A stretch of 64,000 bases of DNA from an uncultured Peptococcaceae bacterium. Lineage in GTDB: Bacteria > Bacillota > Dehalobacteriia > UBA4068 > UBA4997. Location of the stretch: the NCBI GenBank assembly GCA_937897635.1, contig CALCQI010000027.1, positions 50,316 to 114,315 on the forward strand, given 5' to 3'. A program made the translations under genes and the position numbers. This document shows positions 770 to 38,939 of the stretch, piece by piece (the stretch's first letter is position 1; each line of letters opens with the position of its first letter). Under the pieces are notes generated by a model that saw only the letters and a program-made list of their open reading frames with translations, ran no database searches and was not told the origin of the DNA.

Positions 770-1085
770 TGCTTTACGCCCTAAGGGACGGAAAGCATCC
801 GTGGTACCACCCTAATTAACCTTCTGTATAACACATAAAAAGAAGGCAACTTAAGCTTATATAACGGCAAGCATACCGACCAACCCTACTGACACCAAGT
901 GTTCAGGCCAATTTCTCGCAGGTGAATTTCAACTTAAACTTACTGGAGCAATTTCACCTTAAGCTCCTCTCTGCGAATAAGTATTTAAGCTTACTCTCCT
1001 GTTCATCGAAAGCATTATAATAAATTACTGTAAAAGCAAGTTTTTGTAATAAACGTAAACCGATACCGAACCGGTTCTTTCAAAA
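770..1085 (-). promoter_or_regulatory. T-box riboswitch leader upstream of pheS (minus strand), with terminator hairpin + U-tract just before the SD
   Basis: Minus strand reads AATTAGGGTGGTACCACGG (canonical T-box AATTAGGGTGGNACCGCGG) at ~808-826, followed by stem GCTTTCCGTCCC/GGGCGTAAAGC and TTTTATTTTT; located between trmH-like gene and pheS start. Confidence 0.65.
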
Positions 1086-1219
1086 ATCTTCCAAAAGGCA
1101 TCCGCCGATAGATACATATCAGCACATCCTCTCTGCTATATTGTTTTATCACAAATCCTATAAATATTATAGCATAGGGAGGCTTGTCTGTGCAACATCA
1201 GGCTTATATAAATTTCAGT

Positions 1220-1993
1220 CTATTTCTCGCCAATATCCGCAAAAAATAAAATAGAGGCAGCAACCGCAACGTTCAAAGAATCCACCCCTTTAGCCATGGG
1301 TATGGATAAAGTAAAATCTGCTTTATTACGCCAAAACGCCTCCGGCCCATTGGCCTCCGAGCCTAAAAGCCAAGCCACTTTAGCTGCGCATTTAAATTCA
1401 TGGTAGTCTTCACCATTTGCATCTGCTACCAAAATTTCATAATCATGCTGCTTAAGCTGAAAATAAGCTTCTTCTGCCGTAATCATTGTAACAGGTAAAT
1501 GATAAAGAGCACCCATAGCAGCACGAACCACTTTGGGGTTATAAATATCCACTCCGTTTGCCAAAACGATAATACCCCCCAAACCCGCAGCCCAGGCACT
1601 GCGCAGGATCGTTCCCAAATTACCAGGATCCTGAATATGGTCGAGAATTGCCAGATTTTTACCTGCACTTTCTACAAAAAACTGCTTTATTTCCCAATTG
1701 TTTTTTTTAGCGGCTAAAATTATCCCTTGGCTTTCACGGGTTGCCGAAAGGCTGTGGAAAATACTATCTTTTACATCGTAGCAAGGTATCTGCTGTTGCA
1801 TAAGAGCTTTAACCAGTTTATCCCCTGCAAGTTTTTCAGTATACAAGCAATACGCTATTTTAGTATCAGTACCCAAAACCTCTTTGGCATTTCGCATACC
1901 CTCAATGATAAAAAGCCCCGTTTCATCACGGCTTTTTTTGTTTTGCAAAGAACGTATCTCTTTTACAAATTTATTGTCTCTTGAAGTTATCAT
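1220..1993 (-). CDS. TrmH/SpoU-family RNA 2'-O-methyltransferase (RlmB-like)
   Basis: 257 aa; SpoU_methylase-type motifs (LDHIQDPGNLGTILRSAWAAG, IPMAKGVDSLNVAVAASILFF); conserved position upstream of pheS as in Bacillus ysgA. Confidence 0.8.
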   Translation of the reverse strand: MITSRDNKFVKEIRSLQNKKSRDETGLFIIEGMRNAKEVLGTDTKIAYCLYTEKLAGDKLVKALMQQQIPCYDVKDSIFHSLSATRESQGIILAAKKNNWEIKQFFVESAGKNLAILDHIQDPGNLGTILRSAWAAGLGGIIVLANGVDIYNPKVVRAAMGALYHLPVTMITAEEAYFQLKQHDYEILVADANGEDYHEFKCAAKVAWLLGSEANGPEAFWRNKADFTLSIPMAKGVDSLNVAVAASILFFADIGEK

Positions 1994-2043
1994 ACAGCAC
2001 CTATAAAAAATCAGCCGTTTAAACGGCTGATTTTGATTTCAAA

Positions 2044-2400
2044 TTATTTTAAGGCAGATTTAGCGGTTTCAGCCAATTTACTGAAAGCAGTAGCATCGTT
2101 TACTGCCAATTCGGCAAGCATTTTACGGTTTATGCTAACACCTGCTTTACTCAAACCATTCATCATCCTGCTATATGAAATATCATTCATACGGGCAGCA
2201 GCATTGATACGGGTAATCCACAATTTGCGGAAATCACCTTTCTTTTTACGACGGTGAGCAAAAGCATAGTTCAAAGAATGGAGAACCTGTTCGTTAGCTA
2301 CTCTATACAGCTTGGAGCTGGAAGCGCGGTAGCCTTTGGCTAATTTTAATATTTTATTGTGTCTATGATGTTTGGTAAAACCTTTTTTTATTCTAGTCAT
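2044..2400 (-). CDS. rplT: 50S ribosomal protein L20
   Basis: 118 aa [39 protein letters not shown]... textbook L20. Confidence 0.95.
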
Positions 2401-2439
2401 GCTGAATAAACCTCGCTTTCTTTAACGTATAAGCCAATC

Positions 2440-2637
2440 CTACAGATATGGCAGCATTTTTCTAAGACGGTTATGATCTGCTCTGCTGGAAACTACAGCC
2501 TTACGCAAGTTACGTTTACGCTTGGGGCTTTTAGTTTCAAGGATATGGCTACTGAAAGCTTTATGTCTTATCAGTTTGCCGGTACCTGTAACTTTATATC
2601 TTTTAGCAGCTCCACGGTGACTCTTCATTTTAGGCAT
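2440..2637 (-). CDS. rpmI: 50S ribosomal protein L35
   Basis: 65 aa [28 protein letters not shown]... textbook L35. Confidence 0.95.
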
Positions 2638-2684
2638 AATAATCCTCCTCTACAGAAATATATACAAGCTTTACTGTATACGTA

Positions 2685-3197
2685 TTAGTTTTTAGGGGTT
2701 AAAATCATGGTCATATTGCGGCCTTCCAGCTTAGCAGGCTTTTCAACATTAGAAATTTCCGCAAGCCTTTCACTCATACGATTGCACAATACCACACCAA
2801 GCTCGGGATGAGTAACCTCTCTACCGCGAAACATAATGGTAACCTTTACCTTGTCCTTATTCATAAGGAATTTTTCCGCATTACGAGCTTTGGTTTCAAA
2901 ATCATGGTCTTCAATATTTATCCGCAGTTTTACCTCTTTTAAGATAATAATCTTTTGATTTTTTTTGGTTTCTTTATCCCTTTTTAACTGCTCAAAACGA
3001 TAACGCCCGTAATCCATGACTTTGCAAACCGGCGGTTTGGCGTTAGGTGATATTTCCACCAGATCCAAGCCTTTATCATAGGCCGTTTGCAAGGCTTCCT
3101 TAGTAGAAACAACTACCGGTTGTTCTTCGCTGTTTTCCAAAACCAGGCGCACTTCACCAATCCTGATTTCTTCATTAATCCGCAATTCTTTAAAAAT
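2685..3197 (-). CDS. infC: Translation initiation factor IF-3, non-canonical AUU start
   Basis: IF3 N/C domains (EVRLV..., KVMDYGRYRFEQ..., KVTIMFRGRE); GGAGGTG SD at 3211..3205 is exactly 7 nt from ATT (3197..3195) but 19 nt from the TTG used by the ORF track; the reading frame opens at a TAA at 3203..3201. Confidence 0.85.
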   Translation of the reverse strand: MFKELRINEEIRIGEVRLVLENSEEQPVVVSTKEALQTAYDKGLDLVEISPNAKPPVCKVMDYGRYRFEQLKRDKETKKNQKIIILKEVKLRINIEDHDFETKARNAEKFLMNKDKVKVTIMFRGREVTHPELGVVLCNRMSERLAEISNVEKPAKLEGRNMTMILTPKN

Positions 3198-3224
3198 GAT
3201 TTAACACCTCCCAAACAAATTAAA

Positions 3225-3252
3225 AAAGCGGGTGTAGAACACCCGCTTCTCA
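3225..3252 (-). terminator. Rho-independent terminator/attenuator between thrS and infC
   Basis: Minus strand GCGGGTGTTCTACACCCGC hairpin followed by TTTTTTAATTTGTTT, immediately upstream of infC SD (position consistent with the L20-controlled infC-rpmI-rplT leader attenuator of Firmicutes). Confidence 0.6.
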
Positions 3253-3389
3253 TAACAAAACCCAAAATTTTGCTATAGACCCGACCGCTTAACAGCCAAG
3301 GTGAGGATGGGCTCCTACTTTGCTTTATTTACTAAATAATATTAACACAAATTAAACCCTTTGTCAACACATTGTCAATACATGGTAGA

Positions 3390-5303
3390 TTAAAAAAACG
3401 TTTTTTCGGCAATTTGCTTTTTAAGCAATTCCATAAAGTCATTCGCTTTTTGGGTACCAATATCACCTTCACCACGTTTGCGTACAGCAACAAGGCCATC
3501 TGACATTTCTTTATCACCAATAACCAGCATATAAGGTATCTTTTGGGTTTGGGCTTCCCTGATTTTGTAGCCTATTTTTTCATTACGGGTATCCACTTCT
3601 ACCCGTATACCGGCTTTTTTATATTTTTTAGCCAATTCGTTTACATAATCAAGCTGATTACCTGTAATATTCATGATTTTTACCTGTACAGGAGCAAGCC
3701 AAAGCGGAAAAGCACCCGCAAAATGCTCCGTCAAAATACCGATAAACCGTTCCATGCTACCAAAAGCAACTCTGTGGATCATAACAGGGCGGTGTTTTTG
3801 ATTATCCTCGCCTATATAAGCCATATCAAATTTTTCGGGCATTTGGAAATCCAACTGGATAGTACCACACTGCCAAGTCCTGCCAATGCTATCTTGCAGG
3901 TGGAAATCCAATTTGGGTCCATAAAAAGCGCCATCACCCGGATTGATTTTATAAGACATCCCCATTTCATCCATGGCTTCAGCCAAGGAATTGGTAGCAA
4001 GCTCCCAAATAGCATCATCACCCATGGCTTTTTCAGGCTTTGTAGACAGTTCAACATGGTATTCAAAACCAAATAGTTTATAAATATAATCTACAAGCTT
4101 TGTAACACCTTTGATTTCCTCTTTGATTTGGCTTGGCAGCATAAAAATATGGGCATCATCCTGCGTAAAGCAGCGTACACGCATTAAACCGTGTAAAGCT
4201 CCCGAGAGCTCGTGGCGGTGTACCTGACCCAATTCACCCATTCTGATGGGTAAATCACGGTAACTGTGCAGATCGTTTTTATAAACTAAAATACCGCCGG
4301 GGCAGTTCATAGGCTTGATTGCATAATCCTCATCATCTATTTTGGTAAAATACATGTTGTCTTTATAATGATCCCAGTGCCCCGAACGTTCCCAAAGCTG
4401 GCGGTTCAAGATCATAGGAGTTTTTACCTCTACATAATCGTTGGCTTCATGCACCTCGCGCCAGAATTTTTCCAGCTCATTTCTCAAAATCATGCCCTTA
4501 GGCAAAAAGAATGGGAAACCCGGGCCTTCATCCATAAAAGTAAATAAGCCCAATTCTTGGCCTAAACGGCGATGATCACGTTTTTTGGCTTCCTCCATAC
4601 GGAAAATATAGTCATCCAGCATTTTTTGTTTGGGAAAAGTTATACCATATATCCTTTGCAGCATTTTGTTTTTCTCACTGCCGCGCCAATAAGCACCCGC
4701 CAGGCTTAAAAGCTTGATAGCCTTTACCATACCTGCATTGGGTATGTGCGGGCCTGCACATAAATCAATAAAATCGCCCTGAGTATAAGTGCTTATTACA
4801 GCATCTTCAGGCAAGTCATTGATCAATTCAACTTTATAGATTTGGCCTTTATCAGCAAAAAATTTCAGTGCTTCGGAACGGCTCATTTCTTTTCTTTGGT
4901 ATTCAGCCTTATCCTTAACTATCTTGAGCATTTCGGCTTCTATTTTTGCCATATCCTCAGGCGTAAAAACGTGTTCGGAATCCAAATCATAATAAAAACC
5001 CTCTTTGATAGCGGGGCCTATACCAAATTTAGTACCGGGGAAAAGATGCTGGACGGCTTGCGCCATGATATGAGAAGAACTGTGCCAAAAAACAACCTTG
5101 CCTTCCTCATCGTCAAAGGTAAGTACGGCAAAATCAACTTCCCCATCCAAAACTGTATTCAAATCCACAATTTTACCATTGACCTTGGCCGCCACTGCTG
5201 CTTTAGCCAGGCTGTTGCTGATATTTTTTGTAACTTCAAGCGCACTCATGGCTTCAGAAAATTCTTTTTTGCCGCCATCGGGCAAATTGATAATCAATGT
5301 CAT
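3390..5303 (-). CDS. thrS: Threonine--tRNA ligase
   Basis: 637 aa; TGS/editing/class II core/anticodon-binding architecture, motifs HRDLPIRMGELG..., FTQDDAHIF, typical length. Confidence 0.95.
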   Translation of the reverse strand: MTLIINLPDGGKKEFSEAMSALEVTKNISNSLAKAAVAAKVNGKIVDLNTVLDGEVDFAVLTFDDEEGKVVFWHSSSHIMAQAVQHLFPGTKFGIGPAIKEGFYYDLDSEHVFTPEDMAKIEAEMLKIVKDKAEYQRKEMSRSEALKFFADKGQIYKVELINDLPEDAVISTYTQGDFIDLCAGPHIPNAGMVKAIKLLSLAGAYWRGSEKNKMLQRIYGITFPKQKMLDDYIFRMEEAKKRDHRRLGQELGLFTFMDEGPGFPFFLPKGMILRNELEKFWREVHEANDYVEVKTPMILNRQLWERSGHWDHYKDNMYFTKIDDEDYAIKPMNCPGGILVYKNDLHSYRDLPIRMGELGQVHRHELSGALHGLMRVRCFTQDDAHIFMLPSQIKEEIKGVTKLVDYIYKLFGFEYHVELSTKPEKAMGDDAIWELATNSLAEAMDEMGMSYKINPGDGAFYGPKLDFHLQDSIGRTWQCGTIQLDFQMPEKFDMAYIGEDNQKHRPVMIHRVAFGSMERFIGILTEHFAGAFPLWLAPVQVKIMNITGNQLDYVNELAKKYKKAGIRVEVDTRNEKIGYKIREAQTQKIPYMLVIGDKEMSDGLVAVRKRGEGDIGTQKANDFMELLKKQIAEKTFF

Positions 5304-5309
5304 TTTTTT

Positions 5310-5575
5310 CCTCCTTTTGATTTTAAAAATAAAAAACCTTCATCCGTAAGGGACGAAAGTTATTCCGTGGTTCCACCCTAATAGAGAAAATGCCTCCACT
5401 TAATACCGTTAACGCCGATTTACGTTACCCTTGAATACGGGTACAGCTCCGAGGTGGTATAGGGAATTTTTTTTGCTAAACGCTTCCAGCCAAGGCGTTT
5501 ATTCTCTGGTACAAAAGGTACTTCCTTTTTGTCCTCTTCATTACTTGTGTTTATTATAAAGCACCACTTAAACAT
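5310..5575 (-). promoter_or_regulatory. T-box riboswitch leader upstream of thrS
   Basis: Minus strand TTAGGGTGGAACCACGG at ~5383-5366, then 9-bp wobble stem CUUUCGUCC/GGAUGAAGG and UUUUUUAUUUUU before the thrS SD. Confidence 0.65.
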
Positions 5576-5605
5576 TGTCAATTATTTAAATGCAACAAAT
5601 CCCGT

Positions 5606-5640
5606 TTTTGTAAGAAAAGGATCGTCAAAGCTATTTGACG
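5606..5640 (-). terminator. Terminator downstream of ctp-like gene
   Basis: Perfect stem GGATCGTCAAA...TTTGACGATCC followed on minus strand by TTTTCTTACAAAAAC. Confidence 0.6.
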
Positions 5641-5686
5641 ATCCTAAAATCCGTTAATCAGCATATATTTGCTTTTATTTTAATAT

Positions 5687-7174
5687 CTAATCATAATTTT
5701 TGATTATGATGCTGCCATAATCAGTGTATATTTCTATATTAAATCCAAAATATTTTTTTATGAAAGTTTCTGAAACCATAGTAGTTCCATTATTTTTGAC
5801 CAAATTTTCTTTTGTTGCCTTTCCTGATTTTTTTACCATATTGGTAACAGGATTGATAATTATTTTATCATCATAGCCTTGCATAACAATACCTCCATTT
5901 TTCAAGGAAACATTGTAACCGGCTATATAAGCGGCATCCCGCAAAGAAAGGTAGATTTTGTCGTTTATCAATTTTGGAGCCTTAAGCATTGTTATGGTAT
6001 CTTCCAAATGTTCATTCAAAAACACCAATTCCTTGCTGCCTATTTTACCTGTATAGGTCATATTTGAGGTTTTATTCAAAAGCATATTTACAGCCAAATC
6101 AGCAGCTTTATTTTCATTACCCACATAAATACTGGGTAAAACACCTTTTTGTGTATAAATATCTTGCATATTCCTGCTATATGAACGAGCAGTTGTGAAT
6201 TTCACTATAGCACCATCCGGCAGCATAAAAAGGGATTGCGCAACCCCCTTACCACCTGTTTTGGAACCTATAACCGGCACACCCAAATCCTGCATCGTAG
6301 TAGCAAATATTTCAGCCGCACTCCAAGTATTGTTGTTTACCAGAACAACTATAGGAATGTCCCAATATTCTTGATCATAAGTCCAGTAGGTTTTAAACCT
6401 GCCATTTGCCATATCCAAAAAGGCTGTTTTGCCAAAAGGTATAAGCATATCCAAAACATCTGACATTATCTGTACATCACCGCCAGGGCTATTAGATAAA
6501 TCCAAAATCAAGCTTTTTACACCTGCTTCCTTGAATTCGGCAATGATCTCTCCCATATATTTAGGCAAATTTTCATTAAAATAGCTTATAGATATATAGC
6601 CCATATCATCACCCAGCACTCCATAAGCGGGAGTCAAGTCATAAGCTGCTGTAATAATGCTTAAATTATTGGTTTTGCCATCCCTTATATATTTTAAGTT
6701 TACATTTACACCTTCGGTAGTTGGGAAAAGAGGTTTGATTTCTGTTAAAGTTTTATTGATGATTGATACTCCGTTGATTTCTGTAATTATATCTCCTGCT
6801 TTTAAACCTGCAGCTTCAGCTGCCGAATCCTTCATTACATTATTTATAAAAACACCTTGCCCTTTTTCCAGCAGTGAATAATTTATGCCGAGACCATAGC
6901 CATCTTTATTAAAATCATGCATAAACTCTGCAAATTCTTCAGGAGTATAATACTCCGCATAAGGATCATGCAGACCTTCTATGATTTTATCTATATCATT
7001 GCTTTGTAAAATACTTCTGTCATAATCAAATATATAATATTCTTCAATATAAGCCTTTACCAAGTCTGCATTGGTTGGTGCAGCAGCCATTGCGCTGCCT
7101 GAAAAAACCAAACAAAGGCATATTACCAATAATATAATAAGCCCTATTTTTTTAGTGTTTTTTATTGATTTCAC
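5687..7174 (-). CDS. S41 carboxyl-terminal processing peptidase with PDZ domain, secreted/lipid-anchored
   Basis: 495 aa; N-terminal signal peptide (LIILLVICLCLVFSGSAMAAA), PDZ (GVFINNVMKDSAAEAAGLKAGDIITEING), S41 catalytic block (LILDLSNSPGG...), C-terminal stalk-like domain. Confidence 0.8.
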   Translation of the reverse strand: MKSIKNTKKIGLIILLVICLCLVFSGSAMAAAPTNADLVKAYIEEYYIFDYDRSILQSNDIDKIIEGLHDPYAEYYTPEEFAEFMHDFNKDGYGLGINYSLLEKGQGVFINNVMKDSAAEAAGLKAGDIITEINGVSIINKTLTEIKPLFPTTEGVNVNLKYIRDGKTNNLSIITAAYDLTPAYGVLGDDMGYISISYFNENLPKYMGEIIAEFKEAGVKSLILDLSNSPGGDVQIMSDVLDMLIPFGKTAFLDMANGRFKTYWTYDQEYWDIPIVVLVNNNTWSAAEIFATTMQDLGVPVIGSKTGGKGVAQSLFMLPDGAIVKFTTARSYSRNMQDIYTQKGVLPSIYVGNENKAADLAVNMLLNKTSNMTYTGKIGSKELVFLNEHLEDTITMLKAPKLINDKIYLSLRDAAYIAGYNVSLKNGGIVMQGYDDKIIINPVTNMVKKSGKATKENLVKNNGTTMVSETFIKKYFGFNIEIYTDYGSIIIKNYD

Positions 7175-7207
7175 TTAATAATTACGCCTCTTTTCTTGTT
7201 TACAGGT

Positions 7208-7846
7208 TCACACCTTGTATTCACAAAGTTGTTGTACAATACACATATCACATTTGGGTTTTTGAGCTGTACAAACTTTCCTGCCATGCCAAATCAACCA
7301 GTGATGTGCTTCTGCCCAATCCTTTTCAGGAATAATGGCACATAAATCGGCTTCCACTTGCTCAGGATTTTTACCATTACTGAAGCCTAAACGGTGGGCC
7401 AGCCTAAACACATGCGTGTCAACAGCCAAAGCAGGTATTCCATAACCAACACTAAGCACAACATTAGCTGTTTTTCTGCCAACACCTGGTAACAGCATTA
7501 ACTCTTCCCTGGTTTTTGGCACTTCGCCTTTATATTGCTCTAAAATAATTTTACTTGCAGCCAATATATTCTTAGCCTTATTTTTGTATAGACCACAGGT
7601 TTTTATCAATTGTTCCAACTCTGCCAGTTTAATTTTAGCCAAATTTTCCGGGGTACCGTAATTTTTAAATAACTTCTCCGTTATTTTATTTACCTGATTA
7701 TCATTGGTTTGGGCGGAAAGTATTACCGCAATCAACAGTTGATAAACACTGCCAAATTTCAAAGCTGAACCGGTACCATCATATTCCTTATGTAACAAAG
7801 TAAATATTTCTTGTTCACGTGTCAAAACCATTTTACACCTCCACAT
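7208..7846 (-). CDS. nth: Endonuclease III (DNA-(apurinic or apyrimidinic site) lyase)
   Basis: HhH-GPD motif LPGVGRKTANVVL, catalytic K/D, C-terminal [4Fe-4S] CTAQKPKCDMCIVQQLC. Confidence 0.9.
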   Translation of the reverse strand: MWRCKMVLTREQEIFTLLHKEYDGTGSALKFGSVYQLLIAVILSAQTNDNQVNKITEKLFKNYGTPENLAKIKLAELEQLIKTCGLYKNKAKNILAASKIILEQYKGEVPKTREELMLLPGVGRKTANVVLSVGYGIPALAVDTHVFRLAHRLGFSNGKNPEQVEADLCAIIPEKDWAEAHHWLIWHGRKVCTAQKPKCDMCIVQQLCEYKV

Positions 7847-31624: not shown

Positions 31625-32482
31625 TTAAGGCAAAATCTCCAGTGCTTTTTCAAATAAGCTTTTAATGGCGCGTCCGGCTGCACAATCAACATCCACTACA
31701 CTTAAATTATGGTTTATTGCTATTACAGCTTTATTATCAAAGGGTATTTTACCTAAAAAAGGTATAGAGGAATCTTCACAAAAAGCTTCTATTTTATTTG
31801 AATTGGCTATATTGGTATCATATTTATTTATACAAACAGCAACTTTACTGTCAAACTGCTTGGCCGTTTTAATAATGCGTTCCATATCATTTATGCCCGA
31901 AAGTGAAGGTTCTGCCACTATCAAAACCATGTTTGCACCACTTAAAGAAGCAATAACAGGGCAACCTATACCGGGAGAACCATCTACTATTACTATATCT
32001 GTATCAACTTTATTGAGTAATAGTTGTTTTTTTACTTCACTTACCAATTTACCGGAATTGCCGCTCCCCATTTTAAGACAAGCCGTTGAAAAAATGCTTT
32101 CATCCTTATAAAGCATTAATTCACCTGCCACATTAGGTTTTAACGATATTGCAGAAACAGGGCATAAAGCCTCGCAAACTCCACAGCCCTCACAACTATA
32201 AGTATCCACCAGATAATTTTCTTTTAAGCTGATTGCCTCAAAGCGGCAATTTTGTCTGCATACATCACAACGCAAACATAAACCGGAATCTATTACAGCC
32301 TTAGGCATACCATAATACTCCGAACATAGCGGATTTGTATTTTTGTTCATCAGCAAATGTAGGTTAGGTGCATCAACATCACAGTCAGCATACATTTTAG
32401 CCTTGGCAAGCTTAATCAAAGCAGAGGCAATAGTTGTTTTACCTGTACCGCCTTTACCGCTTAGAATCAAAAGCTGCTTCAT
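31625..32482 (-). CDS. MinD/Mrp-like P-loop ATPase with inserted 2x[4Fe-4S] ferredoxin domain (CooC-like)
   Basis: Start chosen at MKQLLILSGKGGTGKTT (deviant Walker A); CLRCDVCRQNC and CEGCGVCEALCP clusters; ORF-track start 32557 adds 25 aa overlapping upstream gene. Confidence 0.8.
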   Translation of the reverse strand: MKQLLILSGKGGTGKTTIASALIKLAKAKMYADCDVDAPNLHLLMNKNTNPLCSEYYGMPKAVIDSGLCLRCDVCRQNCRFEAISLKENYLVDTYSCEGCGVCEALCPVSAISLKPNVAGELMLYKDESIFSTACLKMGSGNSGKLVSEVKKQLLLNKVDTDIVIVDGSPGIGCPVIASLSGANMVLIVAEPSLSGINDMERIIKTAKQFDSKVAVCINKYDTNIANSNKIEAFCEDSSIPFLGKIPFDNKAVIAINHNLSVVDVDCAAGRAIKSLFEKALEILP

Positions 32483-33332
32483 TATGTACCTCCTCAGCAA
32501 TTTTTTGCCATAAGGCAGAAAATAATTGAGCATATTCCATATTTTCTCTTGACACAATCAAAGCGTTTGAATTCAATTCACCAAGCTTTTTATCAAAAGG
32601 GATTTTAGCCAAAATTCTGATCTTTTTTGCTTTACAAAACTCTTCCGAGGGATTAACAGCCTCAATACATTTGTTCAAGACAACTCCATGCGGTTTCTTG
32701 AATAAACTTATCAATTCATAAACAAGCTTTAGATTATGCATACCAAACAATGTCGGCTCTGCTACTAATAAGCAGTAATCGGCATCCTTAATGCTTTCCA
32801 TAACAATACAGGCACTGCCCGGTGGGCAATCAATAAAAATATTTTCATCCATATCTTGAGCCATGTGCAAAAGCTTATTGATGATAGGAATACCGGAAGA
32901 TTCACCTATTTTTAAAATACCGCTCATAACGGTTATATCTTCCGAAACACCTTTTTGCACTGACCCTATTATTCTGTCTTTTTCAGTCAAAGCTTTTTCA
33001 GGGCAAAAAAGAACGCAACCGCCGCAGGAATGGCAAATTTCATCAAACAACATCCATTTACCCTGAATATAGGCCAGCGCATTGAATTTACAAAATTCCA
33101 CACATTTACGGCAGCCTGTACACCTTGCTGGATCAACAAAAGGAACTTTTACAGTTACATTTTCAGTTTGTAAATTTTGAGGCTTAAAAAAAAGATGGCC
33201 GTTTGGTTCCTCAACATCACAATCAATATAAACAGAATTTTGTGTAACAGAGGCCAAATTTACTGACAAAAAAGTTTTACCCGTACCACCTTTACCGCTA
33301 AGTACGGCTATTTTGATTTTTTTAGTTGCCAT
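32454..33332 (-). CDS. Second MinD/Mrp-like ATPase with 2x[4Fe-4S] ferredoxin insert
   Basis: 292 aa; KIAVLSGKGGTGKTF, CTGCRKCVEFC, CHSCGGCVLFCP. Confidence 0.8.
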   Translation of the reverse strand: MATKKIKIAVLSGKGGTGKTFLSVNLASVTQNSVYIDCDVEEPNGHLFFKPQNLQTENVTVKVPFVDPARCTGCRKCVEFCKFNALAYIQGKWMLFDEICHSCGGCVLFCPEKALTEKDRIIGSVQKGVSEDITVMSGILKIGESSGIPIINKLLHMAQDMDENIFIDCPPGSACIVMESIKDADYCLLVAEPTLFGMHNLKLVYELISLFKKPHGVVLNKCIEAVNPSEEFCKAKKIRILAKIPFDKKLGELNSNALIVSRENMEYAQLFSALWQKIAEEVHNEAAFDSKR

Positions 33333-33684
33333 GATGAAATCCAGGATGCACCTCCTGAAGCAATTCCAGTTTGCCTTCTGAAAAAGCCTTTAGATTATCC
33401 TCTACAGAATCATTGATAGTTTTATAAAGCTTAACTTTTGCCGTATTGAATATTTCTGCTGCATTTTCGCCACAACGTGGGGTGAGCAAAACATCCACTT
33501 TATTATCAACTATGAATTGCGCAGCTTTTACCCCAGCCCCTCCACGGCTTTCCGCAGCTGTATTTTCCAAAAAATTATACTCCTTTTTAGCATCATCAAA
33601 TACTAAAAAATAAGGTGTACGACCAAAAGAAATACATATTTTGGTACTGCTGGATTTTTCTTCTACAGGTATGGCAATTTTCAT
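33322..33684 (-). CDS. NifB/NifX/NafY-family dinitrogenase FeMo-cofactor-binding-like protein
   Basis: Start at MKIAIPV with AAGGGGG SD; GAGVKAAQFI, VDVLLTPRCGENA motifs; the ORF-track N-terminal 15 aa are not supported by an RBS. Confidence 0.8.
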   Translation of the reverse strand: MKIAIPVEEKSSSTKICISFGRTPYFLVFDDAKKEYNFLENTAAESRGGAGVKAAQFIVDNKVDVLLTPRCGENAAEIFNTAKVKLYKTINDSVEDNLKAFSEGKLELLQEVHPGFHHGN

Positions 33685-33878
33685 AACATAACCCCCTTGA
33701 TTATATTTTATATCATAAACCATCAACATGAATTATTTTCAATAAAGGTAAAAGGGTCAACCCTGTTACTTTTATTGGCCTTTACCATTCCCCTGTAAAG
33801 CCAATTCTTTACAGCACCAAACAGCAAAGTTCAAGCCAACTACTTTTATTAAAAGTATTGTGCATAACTGTAAGCCTT

Positions 33879-34106
33879 TTAAGCCTTGCCACCAAAACCT
33901 CTTTTTGCTCTACCAATAAATTTAAAGGCTTTGTCTGTGCTGGAGTCAGTAACCGCATTTCTACCACCTGATCTTCTGCAGCTAAACCCGGCACCAAAAC
34001 CAAGGCCTTTACCATCTCTACGAGAAGCTCCGCTTTTGCAGTTTCCAAGGCCTCTACCCGTCTTAGATCCTTGTCCAGTTGGACCAGTTCCATCTCTACC
34101 CGGCAT
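33879..34106 (-). CDS. DUF5320-family small Gly/Arg-rich protein
   Basis: Start at MPGRDGTGPTGQG (signature MPxxDGTGP of DUF5320) with AAGGAGGTG SD 7 nt upstream; first gene of cluster. Confidence 0.65.
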   Translation of the reverse strand: MPGRDGTGPTGQGSKTGRGLGNCKSGASRRDGKGLGFGAGFSCRRSGGRNAVTDSSTDKAFKFIGRAKRGFGGKA

Positions 34107-34123
34107 TTCTAACACCTCCTTAT

Positions 34124-34190
34124 TATTGACATATGTTCTTTTCAATTACTATTATAATACATTATGAACATATGTCAATAACTTGTTTAT
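34124..34190. promoter_or_regulatory. Promoter of DUF5320 operon bracketed by a 16-bp perfect inverted repeat (candidate operator)
   Basis: TTATTGACATATGTTC ... GAACATATGTCAATAA, arms separated by a 27-bp spacer; on the minus strand the upstream arm supplies TTGACA, 16-17 bp later TATAAT; downstream arm overlaps the expected +1. Confidence 0.55.
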
Positions 34191-34440
34191 ATTCTATCTT
34201 AAAATTATAAAAACCAAAAGCTTTTATACTAAAGCTTTTGGTTTGTTTTTATATAACCACTTAACAATAAATTGATGTAAAGTTTATTAATGTATCAACT
34301 GCTTATATAAAGTACTTTTTGTTTACTGAATAAACACTTTTCTGTTTTACCCTAAGTTTTTACGCGTTTTTTATTTTTATATCCGCAGCTATCTAAAAAT
34401 CTTTCTTAGCACATATGCCCTGAAAAAAATATTTTCTTCG

Positions 34441-34510
34441 CCCATAATAAAAAGTGCTATTAAAGCTATAGCCTATTTATTTAATATCACTTCTTTTTTA
34501 TTCATATGCC
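34441..34510 (-). pseudogene. Truncated duplicate of the gerAB 5' end
   Basis: ~85% identical over ~85 bp to 35865..35950; minus-strand translation MNKKEVILNK* (gerAB begins MNKKEVISNKQ). Confidence 0.6.
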
Positions 34511-34520
34511 CCCATCCAAA

Positions 34521-34730
34521 TTATTTTTTTACAAAATCCCCTAGTATACTTTCAATAACTTTAATTGGCTGAGGCAACTGTATACCGGAAAGCAGCAAAA
34601 TACTTATAACAAAAGCAAATAATATAGTTACAGAGTATATCCATGTTTCTTTCTTTTTTTTGTTTTTATATAAAATATACAGCTCAGGTAAAGCAACTAT
34701 TAAATATATTAAAATTATTAAAATATACAT
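34521..34730 (-). CDS. Germinant-receptor D-subunit-like small membrane protein
   Basis: 69 aa, two TM helices (ILIILIYLIVALPELYILY / IYSVTILFAFVISILLLSGI); immediately downstream of gerAB. Confidence 0.6.
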   Translation of the reverse strand: MYILIILIYLIVALPELYILYKNKKKKETWIYSVTILFAFVISILLLSGIQLPQPIKVIESILGDFVKK

Positions 34731-34800
34731 ATTTTGTTCCCCTATTTTAATTAGATTTACACTTATAGTTTTCTGAAATTCCTATATTCGTTTTATATAT

Positions 34801-35931
34801 TTATTTTGCTTGCTCAACCAAACCTTTACTGTTTCGGCTTGGATTTTTACCTATTTTTTTGCTTTTTATTTCGGCAGCTATCCAAGTGATCACAGGTATA
34901 ATTATTTCAAAAGGTATAACATAATAGGGCCATACATTTATAGCAAAATCAAAAAATGCCATAATACTTTCCATTTCAAGAATAGATAAATTCACGGCTA
35001 AAAAAGCAATAGGCAAAACAATAAACCTATAATCATCACAGTTAAATAGTTTAGCTACACCATTACACGTAGCTAATAAAAAAACATTACCCTGCACATA
35101 AATCCCTATTAAATAAATAACGGCAGCTATTATATCGAACCTTTGTAAAAAATTACCTATACTTATGCGTGAAACCATTACATAACTTGGGTAATAAAAA
35201 CCCTCTGCTAAATCATCACCCAAAACCAAAATAACTATTATATAAATTATAATTAAAAGCACCGCACCTACAAATAAACCTGTAAGATATATTTTATAAG
35301 GTGAGTTTTTTTCTGCCGAAAACGAAAATATCATTGTAAAACCAATTACATACATAAATGGAAAACCAAAGCTTAAAAATGCTCCTTCTAATATAGGTTT
35401 AACTCCTTCATAAGCCACAGGCAGCAAATTACCAGGATCCAATTTAGGTATTAAAAGCAATAGGATTATAATTTCCAACACTATAGGCACTATTAAAAAA
35501 ATTTCTGCCCATCTGCCGAAAACCTCTATTCCTTGTTTGGTTATATAAGCAGATATAACAGCAAATACACTTGTAGTAACTATACATGGGGTTTCCATTA
35601 TCATAACTGTTCTTATAAAAAAGCCAATGTCTTCAAAAAGCAGGGCAAGTGAATGAAATGCATACCAAATAAATATTACAATAAAAATTTTACCCACAAT
35701 TTTACCAAAACAAATTTCCATAATATCAAAGATATTTTTATTAGGAAACAAGGCATGTAACCGGGCAAACATGATAAAAAAGGGAATAGCCGCCATTACA
35801 GCCAAAAGCATGGCTATCCAAATATCCTTACCGGCAACTATTCCCTGAATATAAATACTTGCTTCTCCTATAATAAAAAGCGCTATTAATGCTATAGCCT
35901 GTTTGTTTGATATTACTTCTTTTTTATTCAT
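34801..35931 (-). CDS. gerAB: Spore germination protein, GerAB/GerKB family (APC-superfamily permease-like B subunit)
   Basis: 376 aa, ~10 TM helices, typical B-subunit length and N-terminus. Confidence 0.85.
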   Translation of the reverse strand: MNKKEVISNKQAIALIALFIIGEASIYIQGIVAGKDIWIAMLLAVMAAIPFFIMFARLHALFPNKNIFDIMEICFGKIVGKIFIVIFIWYAFHSLALLFEDIGFFIRTVMIMETPCIVTTSVFAVISAYITKQGIEVFGRWAEIFLIVPIVLEIIILLLLIPKLDPGNLLPVAYEGVKPILEGAFLSFGFPFMYVIGFTMIFSFSAEKNSPYKIYLTGLFVGAVLLIIIYIIVILVLGDDLAEGFYYPSYVMVSRISIGNFLQRFDIIAAVIYLIGIYVQGNVFLLATCNGVAKLFNCDDYRFIVLPIAFLAVNLSILEMESIMAFFDFAINVWPYYVIPFEIIIPVITWIAAEIKSKKIGKNPSRNSKGLVEQAK

Positions 35932-36079
35932 ATACCGCCACCCAAATCACTTTTGATATCTGCAGTTAGCAAAATACTTATAGCAAAAGCAAAAAATATT
36001 GTTACAATATATATACAAATTTTTTATTATATAGCAAATACAGCTTTAGTAAAGCAGTTATCAAATATACAAAAAACAT
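35929..36079 (-). pseudogene. Frameshifted paralog of the D-subunit gene between gerAC and gerAB
   Basis: ATG at 36079: MFFVYLITALLKLYLLYNKKFVYIL* then, in the -1 frame, YIVTIFFAFAISILLTADIKSDLGGGI*, whose TGA overlaps the gerAB ATG; aligns to the intact D protein (ELYILYKNKKKKETWIYSVTILFAFVISILLL). Confidence 0.55.
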
Positions 36080-36096
36080 TAAGATATATTTTATTT

Positions 36097-37299
36097 TTAT
36101 TCGACTATTTTAATTGGTTTTTGTGATGATGAGGATAACTTTAAATTTAGGTCTATCTTTGTAGTAAACTGCATATCCTTATAAACCTCATCCCAGTTTT
36201 TTTCTATTGTTTTCCAATAACCGGGCATTTTTCTTTTAATAGTGCCATTAAAATCAAATATATCCGTAGCCTGATTTTTTTGAGTCTTTTTTATTAAAGC
36301 TGCTATTTTTTTAACCAATATGCTTTCCATATCTTTTATTAAAATTTCTCTTTTATCTTTATCAATAAAATTGACACTGCTCTGCAATTCCGAAATACCA
36401 ACATCTATATCTGCTTCAATTTGCATTACAGGTTTATTATTTTTAATAATTGGTGTTAATTTTACCTTACTTGAGCATATCTCCAAAGCAATTTTAGTGT
36501 TTTCACCAAATTTATTTTCTTCAATATTAAAAACACCGCCTTTAAGCTCGTCTCTTATCAATAAAGCAATTTGTGATTCTTCCCCATCCAAAAAATATGC
36601 CAGTTTATCTTCTTTGAATACGGCAGAGCCCAATATTTCCGCAATTTTTTTATCTTCATAATTTTTTGTATAAACCACAGGTAAAGCAACTGAATTTGTT
36701 TTTACGTTTAATTTGGCCAGGAAATCCACAAATTCATCTGCTATTGATTTGGATATAGGCTTATTAGATTTTAAAATATCATTCAAATAATAAGAATTTA
36801 TAGCATTTAATTCATTAGATGTTTTAAATATTTCTTCAGCAGTTTCAGCCCTTGAAACTAACACCCACATATCCGGCCTGGTTTCAGTATCACGCCATAT
36901 TATATCCAAAACAGGTACAATACCTTCCCTAGCTATATCCTCACTTATTACCATAACCTTAGTATGTCCCCAAAATATACGTTTACCTGTTTGACTTATA
37001 GCATTTCGCATTGCATCAAATATAGTAAGGCCCTGCGACTTCACCAAGACTGCTGTTGTTGAAGCTTCTTTTTCAGAAGATTGCTGGTTTACTAACTCAA
37101 TAGTTAAAATATAATTATCTGTTTGAGTATCTTTATCTACGGCTACTCCTGTAGCAATAGCAATATTTTCAATATCCCTGTAATTCCAACAGGATGAAAT
37201 CATAGGTATACAAATAAGCAATAAAAATATCAACAAAATTTTAGGCTTTAGATTATTATTTTTTAGCAAAAGATTTGGCACCCGCCCTTCTAAGTGCAA
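36097..37299 (-). CDS. gerAC: Spore germination lipoprotein, GerAC family
   Basis: 400 aa; lipobox IPMISSC then Ger(x)C domain; true start probably a few codons inside (overlaps gerAA by 44 nt as called). Confidence 0.8.
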   Translation of the reverse strand: MHLEGRVPNLLLKNNNLKPKILLIFLLLICIPMISSCWNYRDIENIAIATGVAVDKDTQTDNYILTIELVNQQSSEKEASTTAVLVKSQGLTIFDAMRNAISQTGKRIFWGHTKVMVISEDIAREGIVPVLDIIWRDTETRPDMWVLVSRAETAEEIFKTSNELNAINSYYLNDILKSNKPISKSIADEFVDFLAKLNVKTNSVALPVVYTKNYEDKKIAEILGSAVFKEDKLAYFLDGEESQIALLIRDELKGGVFNIEENKFGENTKIALEICSSKVKLTPIIKNNKPVMQIEADIDVGISELQSSVNFIDKDKREILIKDMESILVKKIAALIKKTQKNQATDIFDFNGTIKRKMPGYWKTIEKNWDEVYKDMQFTTKIDLNLKLSSSSQKPIKIVE

Positions 37300-38779: not shown

Positions 38780-38939
38780 ATAAATCTCCTTGATTTCAAT
38801 AGGATTTTTATAATATTTTCAACCAAATACAGGAAAACTATGCGTTAAAACTGGTAGTTAAGCAAAAACACCAAACAAAAAAGACCCTTAAGGGTCTTTT
38901 TTATTATCACAATTTCATATTATGAAAGCTATAAATTTA

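Follow-up and report, generated by a model that had tools for sequence, protein, structure and literature searches.

Probable tandem duplication and reciprocal gene loss behind a new gene order in a clostridial germinant-receptor operon

Germinant-receptor (GR) operons vary widely in gene order (ABC, ACB, with or without a D gene, with extra B genes), and the causal steps between these orders are rarely visible. A 64,000-nt stretch of DNA from an uncultured Peptococcaceae bacterium (contig CALCQI010000027.1, positions 50,316 to 114,315; hereafter the window) contains a GerA-family operon that very probably passed from the order A-C-D-B to A-C-B-D through a tandem duplication followed by reciprocal loss. 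On the minus strand, the operon reads gerAA, gerAC, a decayed copy of the small D gene (Dψ), gerAB, an intact D, a decayed copy of gerAB (gerABψ) and a terminator. Because both decayed copies survive, the pathway from the one order to the other is directly readable, and the window still reveals where the breakpoints lie, which microhomology accompanied one deletion and why a gerAC fragment moved together with D. An earlier, sequence-only reading of the window had proposed that a D-gerAB unit was duplicated and that complementary halves of it decayed, a proposal supported by the co-linearity of the repeat, the lesions seen against intact homologues and the A-C-D-B order of 27 related operons.

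The two units and their lesions

Two short segments had been reported to recur about 1.4 kb apart at 80-85% identity. Both were recovered, one as a block of 102 nt (34427-34528 versus 35853-35954; 85% identity) that spans the ribosome-binding site and start region of gerAB, and the other as a block of 58 nt (34594-34651 versus 35968-36025; 83% identity) from the middle of the D gene. Together with three more repeat blocks they make up one co-linear duplication, wherein 36121..35813 pairs with 34758..34388 (about 310 and 370 nt, respectively) at 75-85% identity. The gapped local alignment scores 204, as compared to a mean of 24.5 for 200 shuffles (standard deviation 3.1, maximum 37). Unit 1 of the duplication comprises 36121..34759 and unit 2 comprises 34758..~34317, the two being adjacent and in the same orientation. 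D is intact in unit 2 only and gerAB in unit 1 only, while the counterpart copies carry disabling lesions. Judging from the offset between 36121 and 34758, the duplicated unit would measure 1363 nt and would end ~42 nt beyond the gerAB stop codon.

At its left end (36121-36097), unit 1 begins ~25 nt before the stop codon of gerAC, which explains why a relic of the gerAC 3′ end precedes the intact D and runs directly into the D homology. The old gerAC stop codon at the start of unit 2 now reads CAA, and the relic provides the ribosome-binding site of the intact D (AGGGGA), 8 nt 5′ of the D ATG. D genes of relatives start just 1-3 nt past the gerAC stop codon and use the ribosome-binding site AGGAGA, which must therefore lie inside gerAC; for this reason, a gerAC fragment had to travel with D. 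The relic has probably been retained because it carries this signal.

Dψ was aligned to the intact D and to the D genes of three related loci (L019, L021 and L022), revealing a series of lesions. Its ribosome-binding site reads AGTCGA, as opposed to AGGAGA in the relatives, and the homologous start position reads ATAAAA, with no start codon. Within the lysine-rich loop, 13 nt have been deleted, so that the first and second transmembrane helices (TM1 and TM2) now lie in different reading frames, and a 52-nt deletion takes out the conserved LPxP..IE C-terminus together with the stop codon. The TM1 part lies in the frame of an ATG at 36079 and the TM2 part in the -1 frame, which runs to a TGA (35930-35928) overlapping the gerAB ATG (35931-35929), an overlap that the sequence-only reading had described. 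With a hidden Markov model (HMM) of the D family, the TM2 part of Dψ was matched at E=2.8e-7 (in a very small search), and the TM1 part gave a weak match in the other frame. Moreover, Dψ retains the peptide ILLTADIK, equivalent to ILLTADVK in the D protein of L019, and since this peptide is kept, the shifted frame can be taken as genuine former D coding sequence. The possibility that homologues conserve the interrupted frame as a functional one had been raised beforehand, and the opposite was found: relatives possess a single, uninterrupted open reading frame (ORF) of 68-70 codons at this position. The 3′ end of the Dψ region still holds the ribosome-binding site of gerAB, and it is probably the need for this translation-initiation region that has preserved it.

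The second decayed copy, gerABψ, keeps its ribosome-binding site, its ATG and the 5′ 118 nt of the gene (34505-34388), which are ~85% identical to the start of gerAB. As noted earlier from the sequence, it encodes MNKKEVILNK followed by a stop (ATG 34505-34503, TAG 34475-34473), the consequence of a CAG-to-TAG change at codon 11; small indels occur as well. Its tail of ~80 nt (34396..34317) aligns with the 3′ end of gerAB (34885..34804) at a score of 44, versus 24.1±3.0 and a maximum of 36 for shuffles. The intact gerAB contains two copies of the 9-nt sequence TTGGATAGC, 936 nt apart, and the join in gerABψ consists of a single TTAGATAGC (34396-34388) that aligns to both of them. Because the join sits exactly at a 9-nt repeat found twice in gerAB, gerABψ is best explained as a full-length copy that later lost 936 nt internally. 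The retained gerAB 3′ end and the inclusion of the last ~25 nt of gerAC in the 1363-nt unit are both refinements of the sequence-only reading.

Ancestral order, timing and competing accounts

The locus was also recovered from conspecific sources, through exact look-up of the D and GerAB proteins in NCBI metagenome-assembled genomes (MAGs), ENA, JGI and Logan contigs, produced by different assemblers. A 206-nt segment across Dψ is 100% identical in 16 of the 16 loci containing it, from 13 different assemblies, and gerABψ differs among conspecific assemblies by two single-nucleotide polymorphisms only (34435 and 34440). An origin of the repeat in faulty assembly or sequencing, or in fortuitous similarity between AT-rich sequences, is thus all but excluded. 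While the window does stem from a metagenome-type organism and is AT-rich with homopolymer runs, the same sequence in 16 loci, 13 assemblies and different pipelines excludes sequencing or assembly error, including an error at the A-run of the frameshift. Copies that differ by 15-25% cannot derive from collapsed or duplicated reads, and low-complexity similarity, an alternative raised at the outset, fails before the shuffle controls, every one of which lies far below the observed scores for the main repeat and below that for the gerABψ tail.

Relatives were sought by scanning GTDB species representatives with a GerAB alignment, which returned 79 loci that were annotated by phmmer and the D HMM; an earlier scan with a single GerAB protein as the query had returned no loci. 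The nearest GerAB homologues are 52-58% identical to the window's gerAB. The order AA-AC-D-AB occurs in 26 loci of the scan, or 27 once the D gene of L072 is recognised, and AA-AC-AB-D in four, the window included, with several others representing variants with extra AC, AB or D-AB copies. As 27 related operons are A-C-D-B, this order can be considered ancestral for the clade and that of the window derived. The comparison with related genomes proposed in the sequence-only reading accordingly turned up both arrangements of interest, namely gerAA-AC-D-AB (in L019, L022 and others) and an intact, duplicated AA-AC-D-AB-D-AB (in L021 and L104, the contig of the latter beginning within gerAC and leaving its upstream neighbour outside). 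L021 and L104 also have a trp operon downstream in common.

The window's arrangement was probably reached in three steps. The ancestral operon would have been gerAA-gerAC-D-gerAB, the usual order in related Clostridia. A head-to-tail duplication of 1363 nt, from ~25 nt before the gerAC stop codon to ~42 nt past that of gerAB, would then have generated AA-AC-D-AB-D-AB, with one copy of each gene redundant. Finally, the upstream D would have lost its ribosome-binding site and start codon and taken the 13-nt and 52-nt deletions, and the downstream gerAB would have gained a nonsense codon and afterwards suffered the 936-nt deletion between its two 9-nt direct repeats. The outcome would be an operon that keeps the same four working genes, now arranged AA-AC-AB-D, and that terminates at the hairpin (34244-34211). 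We infer that a single 1363-nt duplication came first and that the upstream D and the downstream gerAB were lost afterwards.

The timing of the duplication is the point at which another history has to be weighed. An old duplication could be common to the window and L021/L104, with gene conversion homogenising the copies and decay confined to the window's lineage. Such a history is improbable, even though L021 shares the upstream rRNA methylase neighbour of the window and has the duplicated operon intact, L104 has the same duplicated arrangement, and the window's GerAB is equidistant from the two L021 copies (56.5% and 56.6% identity). The nearest relative of either window unit is the other one, with 75-81% mutual nucleotide identity versus 52-78% to other species in all three alignment segments, and in neighbour-joining trees the L021 copies pair with each other (bootstrap support of 97% for AB and 98% for D), with the single-unit L019 grouping with them and not outside. 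Since copies cluster within each lineage, the intact duplication of L021/L104 appears to be an independent event and not an ancestor of the window's locus. A shared duplication would moreover need conversion in two lineages, a clean loss in L019 and a cessation of conversion before the relics began to decay. Whichever timing holds, the D-gerAB module is clearly prone to duplication. Less probable still is an account without any full duplication, whereby a partial copy of ~450 nt (the gerAC end, D and the gerAB start) was inserted 3′ of gerAB through an event such as template switching or illegitimate recombination, and the upstream D then decayed. What is left of unit 2 does amount to only ~440 nt, and its far end cannot be aligned beyond the gerAB stop codon, but the relic retains the 5′ 118 nt as well as the ~80-nt 3′ end of gerAB, joined exactly at the 9-nt repeat, for which a full copy and a repeat-mediated deletion make the simplest account. 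Relatives, furthermore, hold intact, full duplications of the module.

It is similarly doubtful that Dψ is still functional, whether as a 25-aa, single-helix peptide translated from the ATG at 36079 or, after a -1 shift at AAAAAA, as a protein with two helices. Single-helix variants of GerUD supported efficient GerU-dependent germination in B. megaterium (PMC4661057), and it is because one helix suffices there that a very small chance is kept for the 25-codon ORF (36079-36002) not being fully inert. The remnant has also been kept, and is identical, in all conspecific assemblies, and a -1 shift at AAT AAA AAA T would regain the TM2 frame. Nevertheless, Dψ has lost both the conserved ribosome-binding site and the original start codon, and the ATG at 36079 is not preceded by anything resembling a Shine-Dalgarno sequence. 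T AAA AAA does not fit the canonical X XXY YYZ pattern of a slippery heptamer, the conserved LPxP..IE segment is missing through deletion, and conspecifics are too alike for their identity to signal constraint. Both relics are probably not expressed.

Several points weigh against duplication and reciprocal loss as read here. The relics are judged to be pseudogenes from the lesions in their sequence, and with conspecific genomes 99.5-100% identical overall, polymorphism has no power to test for relaxed constraint. The 42 nt expected past the gerAB stop codon are not detectable at the right end of unit 2, and since that end is no longer recognisable, the exact boundary of the duplication is taken from unit 1. 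An older duplication might also appear recent as a result of gene conversion. Finally, the search for GerAB relatives at 60-99% identity that would show intermediate steps found none, the next nearest being 58% identical. An undecayed, duplicated intermediate was likewise not found in the window's own lineage.

The window's order, AA-AC-AB-D, is also present in three psychrotolerant Clostridium genomes (a Clostridium sp. MAG, C. tagluense and Clostridium sp. CF012), where ~30 nt of the AB-D spacers (L076:6110-6166, L081:6110-6166 and L092:6116-6166) resemble the 3′ end of the same operon's gerAC, at z = 3.9, 3.8 and 1.6, respectively, relative to shuffles. This resemblance, which is no more than suggestive, hints at the same duplication-loss route, with relics that would be almost erased. 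Sporosalibacterium, Thermotalea and Marinisporobacter have the order AA-AC-D-AC-AB-AB (L040, L069, L082 and L094, at about 800-7300), and Clostridium caldaquaticum has AA-AC-D-AB-AB followed directly by a second AA-AC-D-AB operon (L073:2100-11071). "Orphan" B genes, without an adjacent gerAA or gerAC on the same strand, form 39 chains in 38 of the 79 loci (L026-L102), and in a few cases (L053 and L089) AA and AC lie on the strand opposite to the GerAB gene.

The D family and the operon's surroundings

Hydropathy analysis of the intact D protein reveals two hydrophobic segments, at approximately residues 1-21 and 29-53, with KNKKKKE between them. A word-index search with this protein retrieved the same species only, and the family emerged when 1.84 billion representative proteins were searched exhaustively with HMMER, giving 50 matches at E<=1e-3. 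Nearly all of these are small, with 48 of the 50 measuring 66-112 aa and 47 under 90 aa, and their alignment shows a common layout of TM1, an L-Y-K-x-K-K-K-E loop, TM2 and (L/I)PSP..IE. Proteins of the clostridial D family measure 66-74 aa and share the loop YKxKKKKE and the motif LPSP..IE. Neither Pfam nor NCBIfam has a model that matches D or its family, and all members looked up are annotated as "hypothetical" or bear no functional name. Matches to the D-family HMM lie between AC and AB in the 27 related A-C-D-B operons and after AB in four, including the window.

The intact, 69-aa gene after gerAB was correctly located in the sequence-only reading, but its identification there as a D subunit holds by analogy. 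Size, two transmembrane helices and operon position agree with the name, while similarity to a probable Bacillus-type D subunit is undetectable. The protein used for this comparison is encoded by a 74-aa, two-helix gene beside a gerUA-like gene on a P. megaterium plasmid (NZ_CP085427.1), a candidate GerUD homologue, and it gave non-colinear helix matches only (7.7 bits) to the clostridial D HMM. Like the clostridial family, it has no Pfam or NCBIfam model. Given this lack of detectable sequence similarity, the label "D subunit" is used by analogy and does not imply an established membership of that family. The small, conserved membrane protein, which is encoded in the great majority of the complete related operons considered here, may form a fourth subunit of the receptor. 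The same plasmid locus (L105:4548-11458) has a gerUA-like operon followed by three consecutive GerAB-family genes, a case of B-gene amplification, and the 74-aa gene precedes this operon in divergent orientation.

As the sequence-only reading had it, the operon is one for a germinant receptor, its A, C and B genes being true GerA-family subunits by Pfam and NCBIfam (Table 1). The gerAB product matches PF03845 (E=1.3e-41) and TIGR00912 (226 bits, cut-off 140; model positions 2-355 of 357). The start of gerAC is uncertain: gene callers give 368-400 aa across conspecific contigs, and its longest ORF shares 44 nt with gerAA. In one of the conspecific assemblies (L017), gerAC carries an 18-nt, in-frame indel at 36942-36959, resulting in 394 versus 400 aa. 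The apparent gerAC-gerAB "spacer" measures 166 nt and that between gerAB and D 70 nt, and ~300 nt of non-coding sequence separate D from the terminator-like hairpin. No terminator-like site was found in the gerAB-D interval, another such hairpin (38905-38874) lies between gerAA and the upstream rRNA methylase gene, and the four genes are probably co-transcribed as far as the hairpin at 34244-34211.

Table 1. Coordinates of the operon's features in the window, and the gene order of selected related loci
Feature	Position	Strand	Description
gerAA	37256..38779	-	A subunit (507 aa), encoded by the operon's first gene; PF03323 GerA E=1e-164, model positions 3-465 of 466
gerAC	36097..37299	-	C subunit lipoprotein; PF25198 E=8.9e-43, PF05504 E=3.2e-33; TIGR02887 292 bits (cut-off 163)
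Dψ	35928..36094	-	Decayed upstream copy of D
gerAB	34801..35931	-	Intact B subunit permease, 376 aa; retained upstream copy
9-nt direct repeat TTGGATAGC, copy 1	35813..35821	-	In gerAB; exact match, homologue of the 5′ breakpoint
9-nt direct repeat TTGGATAGC, copy 2	34877..34885	-	In gerAB; exact match, homologue of the 3′ breakpoint
gerAC 3′-end relic	34732..34758	-	22 of 27 nt identical to 36121-36095
D	34521..34730	-	Intact 69-aa protein, retained downstream copy; TM1, KNKKKKE loop, TM2, LPQP..IE
gerABψ	34317..34505	-	Decayed downstream copy of gerAB; 5′ and 3′ remnants recognisable
Intrinsic-terminator-like hairpin	34211..34244	-	14-bp stem followed by a T-run, 3′ of gerABψ; end of the operon
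L019			AA-AC-D-AB; single unit
L022/L023			AA-AC-D-AB; single unit
L021	4772-7487		AA-AC-D-AB-D-AB; all intact, upstream rRNA methylase neighbour as in the window
L104	1097-5183		AC-D-AB-D-AB-AB; long-read contig with obvious indel errors, starting within gerAC
L103	1169-4182		AC-D-AB-AB-AB; contig end inside the third AB

A GCATA-N18-GAAAATA motif at 38814-38843 (minus strand), ~35 nt 5′ of the gerAA start, resembles the consensus of forespore sigma-factor promoters. Directly 3′ of the operon, a conserved cluster (31625-34145, minus strand) comprises a DUF5320 gene, a NifX/NifB-like gene (PF02579) and genes for two CbiA/MinD-type ATPases with 4Fe-4S domains, and it is preceded by a perfect sigma-70-like promoter, TTGACA-16-TATAAT (34178-34151). 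An Rfam scan of the window found two T-box leaders, at 781-1015 and 5346-5550 (minus strand; 122 and 93.5 bits, respectively), and no known RNA element in the intergenic regions with the relics.

Comparison with known systems

Duplications and gene relics in GR operons are already known, and the window is a clean example of this kind of event. C. botulinum ATCC 3502, for example, has a pentacistronic gerXB-XA2-XB2-XC2-XB operon and a gerXA fragment, CBO1973A (PMC4161481). B genes that are duplicated or occur as orphans have been reported from C. botulinum and C. sporogenes, along with a gerXA fragment that overlaps the start of gerXB, and the authors read the extra ger genes and fragments as a sign of recombination at ger loci (PMC4161481). 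Both cases thus involve duplication of B within a GR operon and a short pseudogene fragment that overlaps the start of a neighbouring gene. In C. botulinum, however, the extra B genes are intact and no D gene takes part, whereas in the window both redundant copies decayed in a complementary manner and the gene order changed.

Another parallel is found in B. megaterium, where BMQ_3896, a D-subunit gene, lies beside a truncated B-subunit gene (PMC4661057). This pairing of a D gene with a decayed B gene recurs in the window at 34730-34317, but the two B. megaterium genes stand by themselves, away from any functional operon, and the D protein encoded there has deleterious effects in combination with GerU (PMC4661057). 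Bacillus D subunits in general are proteins of ~75 aa with two helices, encoded in or beside a GR operon, that modulate the receptor (PMC4661057). The window's protein is similarly small (69 aa versus ~75 aa for GerUD, GerKD and YfkS), with two predicted transmembrane helices and a location in a ger operon. Differences include the loop, which is longer in Bacillus (~20 residues) and short and lysine-rich in the window, and gene position, as the clostridial D gene is almost always found between the C and B genes.

The broadest comparison is with the tandem-duplication-random-loss (TDRL) model, which is established for gene-order change in animal mitochondria. There, too, tandem duplication of a contiguous block is followed by the loss of one copy of every gene, and relics mark the intermediate stage, so that gene order is altered without a net change in gene content. 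Unlike its mitochondrial counterparts, the case in the window occurred inside a bacterial operon, involves two genes only and is constrained by translation signals. A full-text literature search combining TDRL, operon and bacteria returned mitochondrial papers only, which is weak evidence of absence. The organism is uncultured, and these data leave the current understanding of germination unchanged. Tentatively, it may be proposed that duplication of D-gerAB and reciprocal loss form a recurrent route by which clostridia arrive at a new gene order or subunit number, with the window as an intermediate. Candidate independent instances may include L021 and L104 (D-AB-D-AB), L103 (D-AB-AB-AB) and the C. 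tagluense group (L076, L081 and L092). If this is true, nearly every receptor of this clade would have the small, unannotated protein with two helices as its fourth subunit, and the mitochondrial TDRL model would apply to bacterial operons as well.

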